In this document: piece by piece, positions 6,161 through 56,062 of the stretch
Layout of the letters: each line of letters starts with the position of its first letter
Position numbering within the stretch: the first letter of the stretch is position 1
Origin: a virus
IMG/VR virus record: IMGVR_UViG_3300048014_000057
Coordinates: 80,860 to 144,859 of that record
Length of the DNA: 64,000 bases
Reading direction: 5' to 3' (one strand)
Notes under the pieces: generated by a model
The model's input: only the letters and a program-made list of their open reading frames with translations
What the model was told of the DNA's origin: nothing
The model's database searches: none
Position numbers and translations under genes: made by a program

Positions 6161-6529
6161 ATGGATAAGTCTTTAAAAGAAAAGTGGATTAAAAAACTTA
6201 CTTCTGGTAAATATCGTCAATGTCAAAATAGTTTAAAGAAAGAAACTCGTGATGGTGGAGTTAGTTTTTGTTGTTTAGGAATTTTAGCAGAATGTATTGA
6301 TCCTGACTATTTTACAGAAGAAAAATTTAAATATCAAAATAATAGAACTAAAGCATTTGTTCCAAATTCTAAATATTTCCCATCTTTTGTAAATATTGGT
6401 ATGTTACCTGATTTTATTTTAAATAAAATTAGGTTAATCTCAGAACAACAAAATATATTAATAGAAATGAATGATAATAAGGGTAAAAAATTTAAAACAA
6501 TTGCTAAATGGATTGAAGAAAATCTATAA
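6161..6529 (+). CDS. Conserved phage hypothetical protein
   Basis: AGGAG RBS; KW...SGKYRQ...FCCLG...MND...F..IA.WI pattern common in phage proteins. Confidence 0.7.
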   Translation: MDKSLKEKWIKKLTSGKYRQCQNSLKKETRDGGVSFCCLGILAECIDPDYFTEEKFKYQNNRTKAFVPNSKYFPSFVNIGMLPDFILNKIRLISEQQNILIEMNDNKGKKFKTIAKWIEENL

Positions 6530-6532
6530 ATA
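6525..6532 (+). promoter_or_regulatory. T4 late promoter TATAAATA upstream of the tRNA
   Basis: Exact consensus ending 7 nt before the tRNA 5' end. Confidence 0.6.
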
Positions 6533-6539
6533 AAATAAT

Positions 6540-6631
6540 GCGGGATTAGTGTAATGGTAGCACACGGTCCTTATAAGGCCGCATCGCCAGATTAGCGAGT
6601 AGTAAAAGTTCGAATCTTTTATCCCGTACCA
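6540..6631 (+). tRNA. tRNA with anticodon UAU (nominally Ile, AUA), long variable arm and encoded CCA
   Basis: Acceptor GCGGGAT/ATCCCGT, D arm GTGT/GCAC, anticodon stem CGGTC/GGCCG with loop CT-TAT-AA, 22-nt variable region, T arm AAAAG-TTCGAAT-CTTTT, A73, CCA. Confidence 0.9.
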
Positions 6632-7908: not shown

Positions 7909-8208
7909 TTGTTATTTAAACATGGTGAAACTTGTCCTTATTGTAATAAAATTATAAAAATTAATTTTAATAATAAAAATGCACATAATGAAAAAAATTT
8001 TCCCACAAGAGATCATGTTATTCCTAAATCTGTAATGCCTGGACAACCCAGAATAATTGTATGTAGAGAATGTAATCAAAATAAAGATAAAAAAACATTA
8101 TTAGAATGGTATCATAAATTAAAAAATAATAATGATATTAGAAAAGATATTATCAAAGAACATTTAAAAAGAAGTGGTTATAAAAAGGAAGATATAGAAA
8201 ATGAATGA
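7909..8208 (+). CDS. HNH endonuclease
   Basis: CPYC...TRDHVIPKS...CRECNQNK. Confidence 0.8.
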   Translation: MLFKHGETCPYCNKIIKINFNNKNAHNEKNFPTRDHVIPKSVMPGQPRIIVCRECNQNKDKKTLLEWYHKLKNNNDIRKDIIKEHLKRSGYKKEDIENE

Positions 8209-9259
8209 TATAGTAAGAAAACTAGCAAGTATTCGTCGTATTGCAGAAATTAAACCAATCGAAGGTGCTGATAAAATTGTTGCTTATAGAGTTGACGGAT
8301 GGTGGGTAGTTTCACAAAAAGATGCTTTTAATGTTGGAGACCTAGTTTTATATTTTGAGATTGATTCGTTTTTAAATGTAAGACCAGAATTCGAATTTCT
8401 TAGGAAAAATTCTTTTAAATCTACTAAAAATTTAGGAGATGGTTTTAGAATTAAAACTATTAAACTTAAAGGTCAAATTTCCCAAGGATTAATTCTTCCT
8501 ATAACTGATTTTCAAGAATTTTTACAAACAAATCAAGACGGACAAAAATTAATTGAATTTCTTAATGAAGGTGATAATGTTACTGAAATTCTTGGAATTC
8601 AAAAATATGAAAAGCCAATTCCATCTTGTCTTCAAGGAACAGTAAAAGGTAATTTTCCTTCATTTATTAGAAAAACTGATCAAGAACGATATCAAAATCT
8701 ATCAGAAAAAGAAAAAAATTGTTATAAAAATATTCCATTTGAAGTTACTGTTAAAATGGATGGTTCTTCTATGACTGTTTATTATAAAGATGGAGATTTT
8801 GGTGTATGTTCCAGAAATCTTGATCTTAAAGATGATACAGAAAATCTTTATTGGAAAATTGCTAAAGAATTAAAACTAAAAGAAAAATTAGAAAAACTGC
8901 AATATAATATTGCATTACAAATGGAACTTTGTGGACCAGGAATTCAAGGAAATCCACAAAAATTAGATACACATAAAGTTTTTATATTTGATATCTATGA
9001 TATTAATTGTCAAAGATACTTTTCTCCATATGAAAGATATATAATTTTAGAAAAATTAAATCTTTTATTTAATATTGTTCCTATATTAGGAATAAATTAT
9101 TTTGGAGAAAATATTTTCGATCATGAAAAAATTCATATGATAGCAGATAACACTAGATATAATAATATTCCTGCAGAAGGAGTTGTATTTAAATCAATGC
9201 GTGGCAGATATTCATTTAAAATGATAAGTAATGTATATTTGTTAAAAGAGAAAGATTAA
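8201..9259 (+). CDS. RNA ligase (Rnl2-like, DRB0094 family, with N-terminal OB-like domain)
   Basis: RKLASIRRI..I.PIEGADKI, SQGL, FP.FI.KTDQER, KMDGSS (motif I), ELCGPGIQGN, EGVVFK, FKMIS. Confidence 0.9.
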   Translation: MNDIVRKLASIRRIAEIKPIEGADKIVAYRVDGWWVVSQKDAFNVGDLVLYFEIDSFLNVRPEFEFLRKNSFKSTKNLGDGFRIKTIKLKGQISQGLILPITDFQEFLQTNQDGQKLIEFLNEGDNVTEILGIQKYEKPIPSCLQGTVKGNFPSFIRKTDQERYQNLSEKEKNCYKNIPFEVTVKMDGSSMTVYYKDGDFGVCSRNLDLKDDTENLYWKIAKELKLKEKLEKLQYNIALQMELCGPGIQGNPQKLDTHKVFIFDIYDINCQRYFSPYERYIILEKLNLLFNIVPILGINYFGENIFDHEKIHMIADNTRYNNIPAEGVVFKSMRGRYSFKMISNVYLLKEKD

Positions 9260-23245: not shown

Positions 23246-24688
23246 ATGTTTGATGAAAATTTAAAGAATTGGATTAAAGAAAATTGTTTTTCTATTAAAG
23301 GAAGTTTGAATAATAGAATTTCCTTTTTGTCTTGGTGGAAAAATAAATGTGTAGAAGAATACTTAGAAAAAATTATAGAACAAACTTCATTTTTAGAAAC
23401 AGATAATATTACACAAAGAATTTATCATATTTTAAATGATATTAAAAGCATTCCATTATGCAAGCATTGTGGAGTCAAGGAAAATAATTTTAAACAATTT
23501 AAGTCTGGTTATTTTGATTACTGTTCTTTATATTGCTCTACCCAATCAGAAGAACGTAATAAAAAAATTGGCAAAAACCGTGATATGGTTTCTATCATAG
23601 AAAAGACTAAAAAAACAAATTTAGAGAAATATGGTGTAGAATTATATTATCAGACAGAAGAATTTAAACGAAAATCTGCTCAGTCTAAATTAGAACGTTA
23701 TGGAAATTGTCAATACAATAATTTAGAACAAAATAAAAAAACTTGCATTGAAAAATATGGAATAGAAACACTATTTAATAATTCTGAATTTCAAACAAGA
23801 ATACAAAGAATAAAATTAGAAAAATTTCCAGATGGAATTATAAATTGGGGCAGAAAATCTAAACCAGAAAAAGAGATTAAAGAATTTCTAAATCAATATG
23901 GTAATTTTAACACAAATAGAAAATTACTAGATGGACTGGAAATAGATGCTTATTCGGAAGAGCTAAATTTGGGTGTTGAATATTGTGGACTTTATTGGCA
24001 TTCCGAAGAATTTAAAGAAAACAATTATCATTATAAAAAATATATTAGTTGTAAAGAAAAAAATATAAAGTTAATAACTATTTTTGAAGATGAGTGGATA
24101 TATAGAAAAGATCAAGTTCTACAATTTCTTAAGGCAAATTTAGGTATTTTTGAAAAAAGAATATTTGCAAGAAAATGTAAATTTATTCAATTAGAGGATA
24201 AAAGATATGATTTTTTTGATAAATACCATATACAAGGATCACCTTCTAATATAAAATATTCTTTTGGTTTAGAATATGAGGATGAATTAGTCGGTTTAGT
24301 ATCTTTTGCAAATCATCATAGAGATAATGTTAAATTAGTTCTTAATCGACTTACATTTAAAGATGGATATCAAATAATTGGTGGTGCCTCAAGATTAATA
24401 AAAAACTCTTTGGAAAGATTAAATCAGGAAATCATTACTTGGTCTGATAATAGATGGTCTACAGGAAAAATTTATGAAAATTCTGGATTTATTCTAGATG
24501 AAAATTTAGCTCCTGATTATTCTTATGTATTAAAAGACAATACCTTTAGAAGACAATCTAAACAAACAAGTAAAAAATCAAATTTTAATATACCTCCCGA
24601 AATCACAGAACATGAATATTTCTATAATAAAGGAATTTATAGAATTTATGATTGTGGCAAAATAAGATGGAAATATAACAAAAAATAA
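23246..24688 (+). CDS. Putative free-standing homing endonuclease (Hef-like PD-(D/E)xK nuclease plus C-terminal YDCG domain)
   Basis: CKHC/CS..C, KKTNLEKYG repeats, EIDAY...VEYCGLYWHS, IFEDEW, FARKC, HIQG, GGASRL, IYDCG. Confidence 0.7.
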   Translation: MFDENLKNWIKENCFSIKGSLNNRISFLSWWKNKCVEEYLEKIIEQTSFLETDNITQRIYHILNDIKSIPLCKHCGVKENNFKQFKSGYFDYCSLYCSTQSEERNKKIGKNRDMVSIIEKTKKTNLEKYGVELYYQTEEFKRKSAQSKLERYGNCQYNNLEQNKKTCIEKYGIETLFNNSEFQTRIQRIKLEKFPDGIINWGRKSKPEKEIKEFLNQYGNFNTNRKLLDGLEIDAYSEELNLGVEYCGLYWHSEEFKENNYHYKKYISCKEKNIKLITIFEDEWIYRKDQVLQFLKANLGIFEKRIFARKCKFIQLEDKRYDFFDKYHIQGSPSNIKYSFGLEYEDELVGLVSFANHHRDNVKLVLNRLTFKDGYQIIGGASRLIKNSLERLNQEIITWSDNRWSTGKIYENSGFILDENLAPDYSYVLKDNTFRRQSKQTSKKSNFNIPPEITEHEYFYNKGIYRIYDCGKIRWKYNKK

Positions 24689-24706
24689 GAAAGGAAAATA
24701 ATATAA

Positions 24707-26734
24707 ATGGAAATTAAATTAACTGCCGAAGACCTAGCCAAAAAGAAATTATTTATAGCTACACCTATGTACGGGGGTTTGTGTGCTGGTATGTACACTA
24801 AATCTATGTGTGATTTATCGGCTGTTTGTACTAGATATAACATAGAACTACAATATTTTGCTTTGTTTAATGAAAGTTTGATCACACGCGCTCGCAACTA
24901 TTGTGTAGATGAATTTCTTAGATCAAAAATGGATTATCTTTTATTTCTTGATGCCGATATTGGGTTTGATCCTGGTGATATTATTGCTATGATGGGTTTG
25001 ATGACACTAGAATCTCCTTATGATGTCCTATGTGCGCCTTATCCAAAAAAATCGTACGATAAAGATACACCAATTCTTACAGAAGATGGTATTAAAAAAG
25101 TAGAGTGGATTGTTAAAAACAAATATTCTGGAAAAGTTATGTCTTACTCTTCTGAAAGAGGATTTGAATGGCAGCCTGTAATTAATTGGTTTGAATCTTT
25201 TGATCCTAATAAAAAATGGGTTAAATTATATTATCAAGGTGGTTCTAGTAATGGTAAATCTTTAACACTTACTCATGATCATGATTGTATGTTTATTAAA
25301 GATATTATGAATCCTTTAATAGAAAAATTACCAGCAGAAGTAGGTAAAAATAAATGGGCAGTTAGTAGACCAGTAAATAGAATTAATCCTTTATATACTA
25401 AAGATCAATTGTCATTTTTAATTGGTACGCTTTTAGGAGATGCAACACTTTCTAAAAAAGAACAAAGATTATCAATTGAACATGGATCAAAACAAAAAGA
25501 ATATTTAGAATTAAAGCAAAAAATATTTGGTGGTGAAATTACAGGACCTTATACTACTAATAAAAATGGAACAACATGGCATTTAACATCACCTGTAAAT
25601 GCACAAACTAGATATATAAGGAATATTTTATATGAAAATGGTAAAAAAACAGTAAAAAATATTTTGAAATATGTAGACGAAAAATCTTTAGCATTTTGGA
25701 TATTAGATGATGGTTGTCTTCATAATAATAATGGGAAATATTCTCCATATTACAGAATTTCTACAGAAGGATTTTCAGATGAAGATCAATATTTACTTGT
25801 AGATTTTTTAAAAGAAAAATGGGATATTGAAGCATCTATTGTAAAAAATGGTAAATATAATTGTTTATATATTAATACAATTGATAGTAAAAAAGTTTTT
25901 GATCTTATTTCTCCCTATATACCAGATTGTATGAAATATAAAATTCCAGAAAAATATCATTATGTAGAAAAATATATTTTTAATGGAGAATTTTTAAATT
26001 ATGGAGCTTCTTTAGTAAAAGAAGTTAAATGGTTAAATGATGAAAAAAGAAGAAATCAATATGATATTACTGTAGATGTAAATCATAATTTCGTTACAAA
26101 AAATATTACAATTTTTCAATGCATCAGTTGGGAAAAGATTGTTCAGGCGGTAAACAAAGGAATGGCAGATGAAAATCCTAATGTTCTGGATAAGTATGTT
26201 GGAGATTTCGTTTTTAATCCAAAATCAGGACAATCCCAAATTCCCATTAATAAGCCTTGTGAAATTTTAGAAGGTGGAACAGGATTTATGATGATTCGTC
26301 GCGCTACTTTTGAAAAATTTCAAGAAGCATTTCCTCATTATATGTATCGTCCTGATCATGTAAGAACTGCACATTTTGATGGTTCTCGGCAGATTTGTCA
26401 ATTTTTTCAGGCTGAAATTGATGCTCCTGATGCTGTATTATTAAAAGAAAGAATTAAAAAAATTTTTGATAATGGTGGATCAAAAGAAGATATACAAAAA
26501 GAAGTTAATGATTTTGAAAAGAAATTATCTACAGCTTCTAATCGTTATCTAAGTGAGGATTATTTTTTTTCGCAAAAGATACAAGAATTAGGTATGAAGA
26601 TTTGGTTATGCCCTTGGATGAAGACAACTCACATGGGAAACATGATATATGGGGGAAGTTTAGCAGATTTAGCAAGTATAGGTGCCTCGCCAACCGCTGA
26701 AATTTCATTATTGAAAAAAGAAAAAGCTAAATAA
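24707..26734 (+). CDS. Phage glycosyltransferase-like protein (GT-A fold) containing an intein
   Basis: FIATPMYGG, NESLITRARN, FLDADI, YPKK|intein|CISWEKI, GTGFMMI, YLSEDY, H.G. Confidence 0.8.
   Translation: MEIKLTAEDLAKKKLFIATPMYGGLCAGMYTKSMCDLSAVCTRYNIELQYFALFNESLITRARNYCVDEFLRSKMDYLLFLDADIGFDPGDIIAMMGLMTLESPYDVLCAPYPKKSYDKDTPILTEDGIKKVEWIVKNKYSGKVMSYSSERGFEWQPVINWFESFDPNKKWVKLYYQGGSSNGKSLTLTHDHDCMFIKDIMNPLIEKLPAEVGKNKWAVSRPVNRINPLYTKDQLSFLIGTLLGDATLSKKEQRLSIEHGSKQKEYLELKQKIFGGEITGPYTTNKNGTTWHLTSPVNAQTRYIRNILYENGKKTVKNILKYVDEKSLAFWILDDGCLHNNNGKYSPYYRISTEGFSDEDQYLLVDFLKEKWDIEASIVKNGKYNCLYINTIDSKKVFDLISPYIPDCMKYKIPEKYHYVEKYIFNGEFLNYGASLVKEVKWLNDEKRRNQYDITVDVNHNFVTKNITIFQCISWEKIVQAVNKGMADENPNVLDKYVGDFVFNPKSGQSQIPINKPCEILEGGTGFMMIRRATFEKFQEAFPHYMYRPDHVRTAHFDGSRQICQFFQAEIDAPDAVLLKERIKKIFDNGGSKEDIQKEVNDFEKKLSTASNRYLSEDYFFSQKIQELGMKIWLCPWMKTTHMGNMIYGGSLADLASIGASPTAEISLLKKEKAK
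25052..26119 (+). mobile_element. Intein with LAGLIDADG homing endonuclease (356 aa, Ser1, ends Phe-Gln, +1 Cys)
   Basis: SYDKDTPILTEDG (block A), LTHDH (block B), LIGTLLGDA and LAFWILDDG (LAGLIDADG), YDITV..NHNF...IFQ/C. Confidence 0.88.
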
Positions 26735-26771
26735 ATCAATAACTTAGCTTAAAAAATGAAAGAAATATATT

Positions 26772-28265
26772 ATGTTAAAAGGGCAAGGACAATCCAAAGA
26801 ATATGAAATATTTGACTCTAATAAAAATATTTCATATTCAATAAAAAATCTTGCAAATTTTTGTAGAGAAAATAATCTTTCTGAAATTTGTATGAGAGAT
26901 GTTTCTAAAGGAAGATCAATGCAACATAAAGGGTTTTATTGTAAAGATAAAACCTCAGATATTAATCTTTTAGAAATACATAAAAATAGATTATTCTTAT
27001 TAGAACCAAGAATAAAAATAACCAAAACAAAAAAAGAAAGATATAATCAATCTGATTTATATTATGATTTTTTAAATAATGTAGAGAAATATTATAATGA
27101 TCTACATATTGATAAAAAACTATCATGTCAAAAGATAGCTGAATTATTAGGATCAAATGACGAGAGTATTAGATTAGCATTTAAAAAATTGAATTTAGAA
27201 TTAAAAAATTATAAGTATAATTCTGGAAAAAAAAATTATGAAATAAAAAATTTTACAGAAAAACAAAAATTACTAGCAGATAACTTTCAAGAAATTTTTA
27301 ATAAAGAACATTTTGATAATAAACTGAGTATTAATTCTATTGCCAAAAAGTATGAATTTACTCCCATGACTATATTTAATTATTGTAAAAAATATGAAAT
27401 TAAATACGAAAGTAAAAATATATCATCTCCTCATTCGGCAATTATTAATATATTAGATAATTATAATATAAATTATGAAAAAAATAATAGAATATTAATT
27501 AAACCACAAGAATTAGACATATATATTCCAGATTATAATTTTGCCATTGAAATAAATAGTCTTTATTGGCATTCAGAAGATAAAAAAGAAAAAAATTATC
27601 ATTTGAATAAATTCGATATATGTAAAGAAAAAAATATTTTATTATTACAATTTTGGGATATAGAAATTGATAATAAAGCTGATTTAGTAGAATCTATGAT
27701 TTTATCTAAATTAGGAATATACAAAAAAATAATGGCAAGAAAATGTGAAATAAAAATATTAAATAATAATGATATTAAAGAATTTGAAAATAAAAATCAT
27801 ATACAAGGTTATAGATCAAGTAGTATAAACTATGGATTATTTTATAAAAATGAATTAGTTATGGTTATGACTTTCAATAAACATAATCAATATGATTTTG
27901 AAATAATTCGGTTGTGTTCTAAATCAAATCATACTATCCTAGGTGGATCAGAAAGATTATTTAAAAAATTTATTTCTGATTATAATCCTAATTCAATTTT
28001 ATCCTTTTGTGATAAAAGATTATTTAATGGAAATGTATATAAAAAATTAGGTTTTAAATTAGAAAGAGAAACTTCACCTAATTATTGGTATTTTAATGAT
28101 AGAGAATATATATTAAAATCGAGATTACAATTTCAAAAACATAAATTATCTAAACTTGAAAATTTCGACCCTAATAAATCTGAAAGTGAAAATATGAGAA
28201 ATAATAGATATTACAAAATTTATGATTGTGGAAATTATGTTTTTATATGGAGAAAAAATACATGA
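26772..28265 (+). CDS. Putative free-standing homing endonuclease, same family as 23246-24688 with a different N terminus
   Basis: HTH-like N-terminal repeats; ELDIYIP...IEINSLYWHS, MARKC, NHIQG, GGSERL, IYDCG. Confidence 0.7.
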   Translation: MLKGQGQSKEYEIFDSNKNISYSIKNLANFCRENNLSEICMRDVSKGRSMQHKGFYCKDKTSDINLLEIHKNRLFLLEPRIKITKTKKERYNQSDLYYDFLNNVEKYYNDLHIDKKLSCQKIAELLGSNDESIRLAFKKLNLELKNYKYNSGKKNYEIKNFTEKQKLLADNFQEIFNKEHFDNKLSINSIAKKYEFTPMTIFNYCKKYEIKYESKNISSPHSAIINILDNYNINYEKNNRILIKPQELDIYIPDYNFAIEINSLYWHSEDKKEKNYHLNKFDICKEKNILLLQFWDIEIDNKADLVESMILSKLGIYKKIMARKCEIKILNNNDIKEFENKNHIQGYRSSSINYGLFYKNELVMVMTFNKHNQYDFEIIRLCSKSNHTILGGSERLFKKFISDYNPNSILSFCDKRLFNGNVYKKLGFKLERETSPNYWYFNDREYILKSRLQFQKHKLSKLENFDPNKSESENMRNNRYYKIYDCGNYVFIWRKNT

Positions 28266-51452: not shown

Positions 51453-52046
51453 TTATATATTTGAAGGAATAACATCCATATGATGTTCAAAAACAGTACT
51501 TCCATCATCAAGTTTATGTTCTTGGGTAAATTTATATTTCATTTTAGTATCTCGTGGTAATATAAATTCTTTTTCAGAACCATTATAAGAATGATGATCA
51601 ACATAAGCCCCAGGATGACCTTTTGGAACATGAATTTTTAAAACATGCCCACTAAAATCTTTTGCTATTTTCTTAGAAAGAGAAGTTGAAAGATATGCAG
51701 GGTGATTTACAATTTTTTCCTTGTTCATTGCTTCTCTTGGATCATGTGGAGTGCCAGAAAAAAGAGTTAATTTATGTGGTGTTCTATGTCTATCTAAAAT
51801 ATCATCCATTTCAGAAGTTCTTTCTTCTGATTCTTTATGATAAGCATTTTTATATCCATTTTCCTTTTTCTTCCATTGATAAGCATTTAATCTAGATGAA
51901 TCTTTTGTATAATCTTTAATGGGTTTTATATCCTCATCATTAAATTTATAATGATTTGATAATTTATTATGAAGATGTACAAGAGCTCTTTCTTCGTTAT
52001 TTGTTTTATTAAAATTTGATTCTAAAATAATTCTTAAATTTTTCAT
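51453..52046 (-). CDS. ADP-ribosyltransferase (VIP2/Alt-like)
   Basis: YT..S..LN, AYLSTS, G.PGAYV, EKEFILPR. Confidence 0.8.
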   Translation of the reverse strand: MKNLRIILESNFNKTNNEERALVHLHNKLSNHYKFNDEDIKPIKDYTKDSSRLNAYQWKKKENGYKNAYHKESEERTSEMDDILDRHRTPHKLTLFSGTPHDPREAMNKEKIVNHPAYLSTSLSKKIAKDFSGHVLKIHVPKGHPGAYVDHHSYNGSEKEFILPRDTKMKYKFTQEHKLDDGSTVFEHHMDVIPSNI

Positions 52047-55155: not shown

Positions 55156-55338
55156 TTATTTATTAGAAAAGAATGGATTTAATATATTTTCCTTATCTAA
55201 TTCATAATGTCTAATTAATTCATACCTTTTACCATTCCAAGAAAAAATTTCTCTCATTTTTATTTTTTCTTTAATTTCGCCAGTCTCAGAATCAAAATAA
55301 ATTAAATCATATATTTTATTAATATCAGTTTTCGTCAT
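55156..55338 (-). CDS. Hypothetical protein
   Basis: Internal ATG of track ORF 55156-55380; fills the gap. Confidence 0.4.
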   Translation of the reverse strand: MTKTDINKIYDLIYFDSETGEIKEKIKMREIFSWNGKRYELIRHYELDKENILNPFFSNK

Positions 55339-56062
55339 GTGGTAAAACTTCCATATGATGAATATGTTGATGAATATCACGATGAGAATTTGGAAATATT
55401 TTTGTTTCTGTTCTTAAATATCTCATCTTAGTATTTCGAGGAAGAAGAAATTCTCTTTCATTAGTCATGCCTAAACCTGCATGTGCGACATAGACACCAG
55501 AATGACCTTCAGGAACATGAATTTTTAAAAGATGTTGATGTTCAATGTTATTATCTAAATCAAGAACTTTATTTCTTCTTGCAAACTCTCCACCTTTTCC
55601 TTTTTTAATAGAAGTTGAAAGATATGCAGGATGATTTACAATATTATCCTTATCTTTTACTTGTCTAGGATCATGTCGAGTGCCAGAATAAACTACTAAT
55701 TTATGTGGAGTTTTTTCTTTGTTTAAAATATTATCTAAATTTCTAGTTTCGGTTTCATAATTAGAATTAGTTTTATCATTTTTCCAATGATAATTATTAA
55801 TAGGTCTTGAATTATGCATATAAGAATCAATAGCATATATTTCACCTTCTGAAGAATTATCAAAAACTTTTTTATAATGTTTTCCAAGAGAATCAGATAA
55901 ATCACTAATTTTATTTTCTTGTTTTAAACCTTCCATTATATTTTCTGAGACTGTTTCAAAATCTGTATCTCCATCGGTAACAACTGTATCATGATCAGGA
56001 GAATAACCAGAATTAGAAGAATTTATATCTTTTTTCTTAATTATTTGTCTTAATTTTTTCAT
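55325..56062 (-). CDS. ADP-ribosyltransferase (VIP2/Alt-like), paralogue of 51453-52046
   Basis: TPHKL.VYSG..HDPR, VNHPAYLSTS, LKIHVP.GH.G.YV, EREFLLPR.TKM.Y shared by both genes. Confidence 0.8.
   Translation of the reverse strand: MKKLRQIIKKKDINSSNSGYSPDHDTVVTDGDTDFETVSENIMEGLKQENKISDLSDSLGKHYKKVFDNSSEGEIYAIDSYMHNSRPINNYHWKNDKTNSNYETETRNLDNILNKEKTPHKLVVYSGTRHDPRQVKDKDNIVNHPAYLSTSIKKGKGGEFARRNKVLDLDNNIEHQHLLKIHVPEGHSGVYVAHAGLGMTNEREFLLPRNTKMRYLRTETKIFPNSHRDIHQHIHHMEVLPHDEN

Follow-up and report, generated by a model that had tools for sequence, protein, structure and literature searches.

A phage tRNA with a UAU anticodon and a second, GAU-bearing hairpin belongs to a widespread, apparently undescribed family of probable AUA decoders

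To our knowledge, AUA alone among the sense codons requires a dedicated enzyme in bacteria, TilS. How a phage might have this codon read as isoleucine is the question raised by a tRNA gene with a UAU anticodon and a long variable region in the stretch of phage DNA analysed here (the window), which comprises the last 64 kb of the 144,859-bp IMG/VR record IMGVR_UViG_3300048014_000057. ARAGORN called a single tRNA in the window, a tRNA-Ile(tat) of 92 nt at 6540–6631 on the + strand, and the Rfam model RF00005 scored 57.2 bits (gathering threshold 29, E 2e-11) over 6540–6628, with a 19-nt insertion in the variable region. A preliminary description of the window, made from the letters alone, had noted a 7/5 cloverleaf with CCA, a TAT anticodon, G1-U72, A73 and a 22-nt variable region with a TCGC/GCGA stem; all of these are in the sequence, and ARAGORN and Rfam agree with them. 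The GAU triplet in the loop of the extra hairpin and the existence of a family of such tRNAs were both missed by that description. As set out below, the gene is a real tRNA with a conserved fold, a UAU anticodon, an invariant GAU and membership of a family. The best explanation of the whole, which we favour with moderate confidence, would be a TilS-independent Ile tRNA for AUA whose GAU hairpin serves as a handle for isoleucyl-tRNA synthetase (IleRS). The parts of the gene are as follows.

6540–6631, + strand: tRNA(UAU) gene with genome-encoded CCA (ARAGORN, Rfam and the family model R1 introduced below)
6540–6546, + strand: 5′ strand of the acceptor stem, GCGGGAT, with its partner ATCCCGT at 6621–6627 and G1-U72 (sequence)
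6549–6563, + strand: D arm of class I type, with a 4-bp stem GTGT/GCAC and a 7-nt loop AATGGTA (sequence)
6565–6581, + strand: anticodon arm CGGTC-CTTATAA-GGCCG, with the loop at 6570–6576, the anticodon TAT at 6572–6574, and U33, A37 and A38 (sequence, ARAGORN, Rfam)
6582–6603, + strand: variable region of 22 nt, CA + TCGC-CAGATTA-GCGA + GTAGT (sequence)
6582–6583, + strand: 5′ linker CA from the anticodon stem to the extra hairpin (sequence)
6584–6598, + strand: extra hairpin TCGC-CAGATTA-GCGA, with its 7-nt loop at 6588–6594 and GAT at 6590–6592 (sequence, comparison)
6599–6603, + strand: 3′ linker GTAGT, whose 5 nt equal the length of a class I variable loop (sequence)
6604–6620, + strand: T arm AAAAG-TTCGAAT-CTTTT (sequence, Rfam)
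6628–6631, + strand: discriminator A73 (6628) and CCA (6629–6631) (sequence)

The window tRNA has the pairs G4-C69, G12-C23 and G29-C41 and the bases A35 and U36, and its U48, at 6603, is able to make a 15:48 Levitt pair with A15 at 6554. The minimum free energy fold (−24.4 kcal/mol) recovered the D, extra and T hairpins and was only modestly below those of shuffled sequences (z −1.87; 11 of 200 shuffles folded equally well). The case for the structure thus rests on comparison with relatives.

More than 100 relatives of the window tRNA were obtained by motif scans of IMG/VR. In scan 1, only CTTATA, a gap of 22–40 nt and GGTTCGAATCC were fixed, with the extra arm unconstrained, and at least 119 loci were found. 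ARAGORN called a long tRNA(tat) in 86 of the 119 loci listed and made no call of a long UAU (Ile) tRNA in the other 33; at some of the loci that it missed, a tRNA-like match of comparable length was scored at the scanned position by R1, a covariance model built from 75 members. Ordinary tRNAs score 25–55 bits with R1, and members are marked by a score of at least about 68 bits or by the hairpin itself; the window tRNA, which was in the training alignment of the model, scored 85.6 bits.

The alignment of the 75 members showed that 98.2% of the cells in the five helices were paired, compared with 65.2% in shuffles and at most 48.7% when the partners were slid. The acceptor stem was 99.8% paired and all seven of its pairs covaried, with G-U the commonest 1:72 pair (31/75); the D and T stems were both 100% paired, the A73 column was invariant, and there was always one nucleotide between the D stem and the UAU arm. 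The 15:48 pair, read by eye in the alignment, covaried (A15 with T, G15 with C) and was not a fixed A15-U48. In the extra stem, 98.7% of the cells were paired and three of the four pairs had changed on both sides, and it is this comparative evidence that gives the strongest support for a real hairpin.

The loop of the hairpin was also conserved. A hairpin with a 7-nt loop and GAT at loop positions 3–5 was found in 54 of the 57 distinct variable regions from scan 1 (window included), with stems of 3–5 bp, one of them with only 1 bp. The loop was CAGATTA in 31 of the 54; its position 1 was always a pyrimidine, position 2 was A in 51, position 6 was T in 42 and position 7 was A in 40. Between hairpin and T stem, the 3′ linker was 5 nt in 45 and 6 nt in seven of the 54, and the 5′ linker was variable, mostly 2–6 nt. 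When the hairpin was picked in an unbiased way, with GAT not sought, a central GAT was present in 49 of the 57 regions versus 17 of 2000 shuffled regions (0.85%). Scan 2 started from the hairpin loop motif and the T loop alone and gave at least 120 loci. The UAU anticodon was present in 113 of the 120 loci listed, 109 with YTTATA just upstream (regular expression) and four variants with C33 or G37 recognized by eye, and the other seven were unrelated or broken; ARAGORN called 106 tRNA(tat) and one Leu among the matches listed. The GAU hairpin is thus tied to the UAU anticodon, with which it almost exclusively occurs.

The variable arm had been labelled class II-type in the preliminary description, a label that turned out to be misleading. 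The same loci hold 26 distinct Ser, Leu and Tyr tRNAs, whose variable regions are 13–20 nt long; the loop was 3–5 nt in 25 of them and the 3′ linker was 1 nt in 20. By contrast, the loop and the 3′ linker of the window tRNA are 7 nt and 5 nt, respectively, and its extra arm falls outside class II, for which a short loop and a 3′ linker of 0–3 nt were the criterion. Nor does the tRNA have a Leu, Ser or Tyr anticodon or the G73 of bacterial Ser tRNAs. The extra arm instead resembles an anticodon arm: its loop has seven nucleotides, ‘32’ is a pyrimidine, ‘38’ is mostly A, and GAU stands at the place of the anticodon. What follows appears to be an ordinary variable loop of 5 nt, the last base of which, judged by eye, covaries with position 15. 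However, U33 is replaced by A in the GAU loop and purine 37 mostly by U, implying that the hairpin is not built to decode.

Some variation was seen within the family. The top anticodon-stem pair, 27:43, was mismatched in 21 of the 60 members with both letters, leaving a 4-bp stem, whereas the window tRNA has the full 5 bp. Subfamilies with the UAU loop and the GAU hairpin but without the usual U8-A9/D-arm layout made up 38 of 113 distinct sequences by a simple regular expression (e.g. loci L021, L029, L071 and L090); in one example of such a deviant D region, a 4-bp stem with a 4-nt loop directly follows the acceptor stem. Unusual anticodon loops were CCTATAC, with C at the near-universal U33 (L501, L502, L505), and TTTATGC, with G37 (L453). 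Three other long tRNAs of 85–86 nt with class II-like arms and the anticodons CAU (Met/Ile2), UUC (Glu) and UUU (Lys) had no anticodon copy in the arm (L012:554-639, L153, L158).

Eight contigs contained the hairpin sequence unchanged, always within a tRNA(tat) of 91–96 nt, and these eight tRNAs differed in the acceptor stem, the T stem and sometimes the anticodon stem. The exact 17-nt anticodon arm occurred in eight other IMG/VR contigs, three with a tRNA(tat) of 91–93 nt and five with one of 74–77 nt. Among cultured phages, R1 matched Acinetobacter phage vB_AbaS_qsb1 (PV107591.1; 92 bits, annotated tRNA-Ile), Lactobacillus phage LpeD (NC_048677.1; 89.9 bits, unannotated) and Pectobacterium phage PhiM1 (JX290549.1, 25840–25937; 54.4 bits, annotated tRNA-Ile), and it also matched a complete 169-kb T4-like IMG/VR phage (91.3 bits). 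Homologues, whose search had been proposed as a check, were thus found both in IMG/VR and in cultured phages. The tRNAs of PhiM1, vB_AbaS_qsb1 and LpeD share with the window tRNA the UAU anticodon, a 7-nt hairpin loop centred on GAU and A73; the sequences of the acceptor, T and anticodon stems are different, and the phages are of unrelated types. R1 had no match in phages Cr30, HTVC008M and Melnitz. A blastn search of GenBank phages gave 41 partial matches to the tRNA, none covering 80% of it; blastn with the 4.5 kb around the tRNA gave one weak match, and a search for related loci via the helicase gave four pattern matches, none of which was confirmed.

A stricter pattern, applied to bacterial and archaeal genome contigs, gave 43 loci, 26 of them in metagenome-assembled genomes (MAGs) labelled Pyrinomonadaceae, Blastocatellia or Acidobacteriota. 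There, the gene is usually found within a dense tRNA array, and some of the contigs are 0.5–3.4 Mb long. The arrays in Pyrinomonadaceae/Blastocatellia MAGs hold 10–24 tRNA genes within 3 kb, including the GAU-hairpin tRNA. The tRNA arrays often also hold class I-sized ‘tRNA-Leu’ genes (at most 80 nt, without a long variable arm), of which 24 were present in the loci (taa 12, caa 7, tag 5; e.g. L010, L150 and L166); such genes are likewise described for a mycobacterial cluster (PMC6582537).

The window tRNA sequence was found identically in DNA contigs of four public runs, two of which may be the source sample; the eight runs listed were all DNA, labelled moss metagenome, and no RNA run was among them. 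A full-text search of the main texts of openly accessible papers found no description of the GAU hairpin, and the passages on PhiM1 in print mention its gene only as ‘a single tRNA-Ile’, with the hairpin unmentioned there (PMC5377504, PMC6115819). The preliminary description had allowed that this architecture might already be routine among phage Ile-UAU tRNAs. It is indeed common in sequence data, and in GenBank phages it carries the plain label tRNA-Ile, but no paper describing it was found. Taken together, the family is a widespread and apparently undescribed variant of tRNA-Ile(UAU), defined by an anticodon-like extra hairpin that bears GAU.

The carrier of the window tRNA is an uncultured T4-like phage. 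The IMG/VR record is 84% complete and has a GC content of 27%; its matches to PHROGs are those of a T4-like myovirus (DNA end protector, tail tube, baseplate wedge and neck proteins, together with clamp, clamp loader, primase, helicase and a split ribonucleotide reductase), and its gp6-like protein shares only 36% identity with the one from Caulobacter phage Cr30 and 29% with the one from Pelagibacter phage HTVC008M. Of 40,384 codons, 1173 are ATA (29.0 per 1000), or 32% of the three Ile codons, so that AUA ranks among the commonest codons in the phage.

To determine which residue aligns to ATA, a check also proposed in the preliminary description, 139 open reading frames (ORFs) of the record were translated and compared by tblastn with four T4-like genomes (Cr30, HTVC008M, Melnitz and the IMG/VR phage G004), which yielded 215 high-scoring segment pairs from 65 ORFs. 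Residues aligned to ATA (n = 1528) were I 35.9%, L 14.3%, V 16.4% and M 2.9%, and those aligned to ATT (n = 3330) were I 33.8%, L 15.3%, V 19.0% and M 3.2%. The contrast codons behaved differently (TTA to L 41.8%, ATG to M 24.0%, TAT to Y 44.4%). In columns where at least three reference genomes agreed, ATA corresponded to I in 40 of 59, L in nine, V in six and M in none, and TTA corresponded to L in 96 of 115. The ATA profile therefore matches that of ATT and differs from those of Leu, Met, Val, Tyr and Ser, and a reading of the tRNA as Leu, Ser or Tyr is unsupported. The phage proteome is thus seen, from codon alignment, to expect Ile at ATA, evidence that does not show which tRNA delivers it. 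A phage tRNA that inserted another residue at 2.9% of the codons would be costly, and the two points together give indirect evidence that the tRNA carries Ile. The idea of a TilS-independent Ile tRNA serving abundant ATA codons, as originally raised, fits both the frequency of ATA and its ATT-like profile.

The whole record contains five tRNAs called by ARAGORN: Cys(GCA), Gly(UCC), a CAU tRNA, a 93-nt tRNA with an AUA anticodon and the tRNA(UAU). The second long tRNA, tRNA(AUA), lies at record positions 71924–72016 and scores 40.6 bits with the Rfam tRNA model. With A34, it would pair with the Tyr codon TAT, which is very common (47.6 per 1000), and its variable region may form a hairpin with the loop UGGUAAA, in which GUA, the normal Tyr anticodon, is central. 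A scan for CTATAAA...GGTTCGAATCC gave 98 loci, in only three of which ARAGORN called a tRNA(ata), none with such a loop. A ‘decoy anticodon’ as a general rule was rejected on this result, the GUA loop being a single, possibly chance, case. Between tRNA(CAU) and tRNA(AUA) lies a GC-rich spacer of 226 nt (record 71698–71923), in which two elements with 7-bp acceptor-like stems ending in ACCA and with Pro-like and Ala-like anticodon loops were seen by eye; neither ARAGORN nor Rfam (E ≤ 1) called these two tRNA-like elements.

From these data, the tRNA is very probably charged with Ile and decodes AUA. The phage would thereby supply an elongator tRNA that reads AUA as Ile without needing the lysidine enzyme TilS of its host. 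The molecule may be viewed as a class I body (7/5 arms, a 4-bp D stem, the UAU arm and a 5-nt variable loop) into which a second, anticodon-arm-like hairpin has been inserted at the junction of anticodon stem and variable loop. A UAU anticodon is poorly charged by ordinary IleRS, a defect that a single Trp-to-Arg change in the enzyme fixes, and on E. coli ribosomes UAU reads AUG as well as AUA, according to the work on a mycoplasmal tRNA (PMC3575796). IleRS is described as recognizing its tRNAs mainly by the bases of the anticodon and by A73, t6A37 being a strong determinant where the enzyme is of bacterial type, and a synthetase can bind an anticodon-like hairpin that is not at the anticodon position of a tRNA; an example is the binding of ThrRS to the thrS operator (PMC9976931). 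The GAU hairpin might thus present to a typical IleRS an anticodon that it recognizes, while the ribosome reads the UAU arm. A mobile UAU tRNA in hosts with an ordinary IleRS would need some compensation, for which the invariant GAU is the obvious candidate, and since the carriers include unrelated phages and cellular arrays, the partner of the hairpin should be a universal host factor. That this partner is the host IleRS, with the hairpin as its recognition handle, is put forward tentatively, as a possibility that falls short of being probable.

Several points weigh against the proposed handle and the wider explanation built on it. The hairpin, at the variable-loop side, would face away from IleRS and lie out of reach of its anticodon-binding domain while the active site holds the acceptor end, so that a handle would need either an arm swap or a second contact. 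The mimicry is also incomplete, because the GAU loop lacks A37 and yet t6A37 is a strong IleRS determinant (PMC9976931). Neither of the minor E. coli Ile determinants, C4-G69 and C29-G41, is fixed across the family, and the window tRNA lacks both; the apparent parallel in the phage tRNA(AUA) did not generalize. Hairpin-free, class I-sized UAU tRNAs are abundant in phages (at least 117 loci), and five of the eight exact matches to the anticodon arm were short tRNAs. Finally, TilS was found above its curated cut-off in all five of the acidobacterial genomes tested that carry a GAU-hairpin tRNA, which implies that in cells the tRNA is an extra AUA decoder and not a replacement for TilS.

The geometric objection would be answered by a tRNA with two anticodon arms that swap places, IleRS reading GAU in one conformer and the ribosome UAU in the other. 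A normal 5-nt variable loop connects the GAU arm with the T stem, and the usual single nucleotide 26 connects the UAU arm with the D stem, so that either arm could stack under the D stem. Such a swap is considered unlikely; if it does occur, it would uncouple synthetase identity from decoding, and the phage would carry a host-independent AUA decoder into any bacterium.

If the tRNA is indeed an Ile-charged AUA decoder, the hairpin may still be unconnected with IleRS. Another universal factor could dock there or be blocked by it; the hairpin might, for example, keep U34-modifying enzymes off and thereby prevent misreading of AUG, guide processing, stabilize a rewired core or shield against a tRNA-targeting nuclease, or it could be a relic, a selfishly retained remnant of an anticodon-arm duplication. 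This explanation draws on the same codon and family evidence as the IleRS handle, and we rate it as doubtful, though deserving serious attention. Hairpin-free UAU tRNAs are common in phages, which means that charging of UAU cannot always need the hairpin; persistence of the hairpin next to a non-canonical D region (38/113 distinct sequences) could point to a structural role; and the geometry of the IleRS complex would favour another partner. However, we know of no candidate other than IleRS for reading GAU within a loop of 7 nt. A purely structural role, or a relic, leaves the invariant G-A-U unexplained, given that the stem, the linkers and every other helix vary, and does not explain why an Ile anticodon triplet should stand in a tRNA for an Ile codon.

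The preliminary description had offered charging with a different amino acid, or use as a decoy, as alternatives, and neither gained support, as A73 is invariant and 15:48 covaries instead of being fixed as A15-U48. Mischarging by LeuRS (or by SerRS or TyrRS) through the long variable region and A73, by which AUA would partly mean another amino acid, appears very improbable. The window tRNA does combine A73 with a long variable region and has A15 and U48; LeuRS and SerRS do not read the anticodon (PMC11028032), and the nematode nev-tRNA-Ile(UAU), charged only with leucine in vitro, provides a precedent (PMC3333845). Against this stand the Ile-like use of ATA, a codon making up 2.9% of the total (I 40 and L nine of 59 invariant columns, versus L 96 of 115 for TTA), the class I-like D arm, the 7-nt loop and 5-nt 3′ linker unlike those of the 26 Ser, Leu and Tyr tRNAs, and the covariation of 15:48 seen by eye. 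Bacterial Ser tRNAs have G73, and this mark is absent here. Equally remote in our judgement is a gene without a role in translation, one whose RNA would draw off a tRNA-cleaving defence as a decoy or serve as a primer or regulator, or one that is in decay. Phage tRNAs are discussed as counter-measures to tRNA-targeting defences, and an RNA ligase gene lies 1.6 kb downstream (8201–9259), both in keeping with such a gene. On the other hand, every helix is kept by compensatory change in more than 75 divergent members, A73, a CCA-compatible end, U33, A37 and the UAU anticodon are all kept, and the anticodon fits a heavily used codon. In addition, a tRNA-Ile(TAT) from the horizontally acquired cluster of Mycobacterium mucogenicum, compared by description only, is reported to be expressed (PMC6582537).

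Comparison with known systems helps to place the family. The tRNA-Ile2(UAU) of Mycoplasma mobile is likewise genome-encoded with UAU and reads AUA as Ile independently of TilS; it has a short variable loop (4–5 nt) and works with an adapted IleRS (Arg865) and an adapted ribosome (PMC3575796), whereas the phage tRNA has a 22-nt variable region with the GAU hairpin and must use whatever host enzymes it meets. The M. mucogenicum tRNA-Ile(TAT), whose expression was shown by northern blotting, is likewise, by its description, a supplementary reader of AUA; it lies in a phage-like array of tRNA genes in an organism that also has TilS (PMC6582537), as do the five acidobacterial genomes tested here. 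The nematode nev-tRNA-Ile(UAU) also combines UAU with a long variable arm, but nev-tRNAs are derived from tRNA-Leu and charged with leucine (PMC3333845, PMC4300185), in contrast to the class I-like body, the different arm geometry and the reading of ATA as Ile suggested for the phage tRNA; it appears not to be a nev-tRNA, membership being rejected on the class I-like D arm and the Ile-like ATA profile. The allo-tRNAs, for which UAU is a predominant anticodon, resemble the family in their long variable arm and in their occurrence in Acidobacteria, among others (PMC5389517, PMC7609411). They have 8/4 or 9/3 acceptor/T arms and resemble tRNA-Sec/Ser, while the GAU-hairpin family is 7/5, and membership was rejected on its 7-bp acceptor stem and 5-bp T stem, all pairs of which are supported by covariation. 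The hairpins of the E. coli thrS operator, read by ThrRS, also display a cognate anticodon outside the tRNA anticodon position; they belong to an mRNA leader and act in translational repression, not aminoacylation (PMC9976931), so that the analogy is functional only.

An initiator tRNA was also rejected: the anticodon is UAU, the pairs 29-41, 30-40 and 31-39 are G-C, U-G and C-G, and 1:72 is G1-U72. The doubt voiced in the preliminary description about a link to initiation was therefore right, there being neither a CAU anticodon nor three G-C pairs in the anticodon stem.

The tRNA gene stands alone in a gap of 126 nt between two + strand ORFs, for neither of which Pfam or PHROGs gave a function. 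It had been described as lying just after an exact copy of an upstream motif, which is indeed present.

6525–6532, + strand: TATAAATA motif, 7 nt before the tRNA and overlapping the stop codon of the upstream ORF (motif match; a promoter role cannot be shown)

The motif is rarer than chance in the window (18 matches versus 27.7 ± 4.9 expected) and is thus no evidence for a late promoter, a role that was rejected since the motif is not enriched. A sigma-70-type scan gave 13 sites versus 8.6 expected, and the promoter/terminator scan found no terminator. Elsewhere in the window, three large consecutive ORFs at 23246–28265 (480, 675 and 497 aa), just upstream of the sliding-clamp gene, match homing-endonuclease/HNH PHROGs, and two ORFs of the baseplate module (51453–52046 and 55325–56062) match an ADP-ribosyltransferase exoenzyme PHROG (E 2e-13 and 4e-8).

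For annotation, the consequence is that genes of this family are labelled plain tRNA-Ile or are overlooked, as in the case of the LpeD copy and of 33 of the 119 loci listed in scan 1. For biology, a large mobile tRNA family that keeps a GAU hairpin through deep divergence suggests an unrecognized solution to the decoding of AUA, and possibly a new tRNA identity element outside the anticodon and the acceptor. Should the hairpin prove to be a portable tag of Ile identity, it would be of interest for tRNA engineering and for the codon adaptation of phages to their hosts.

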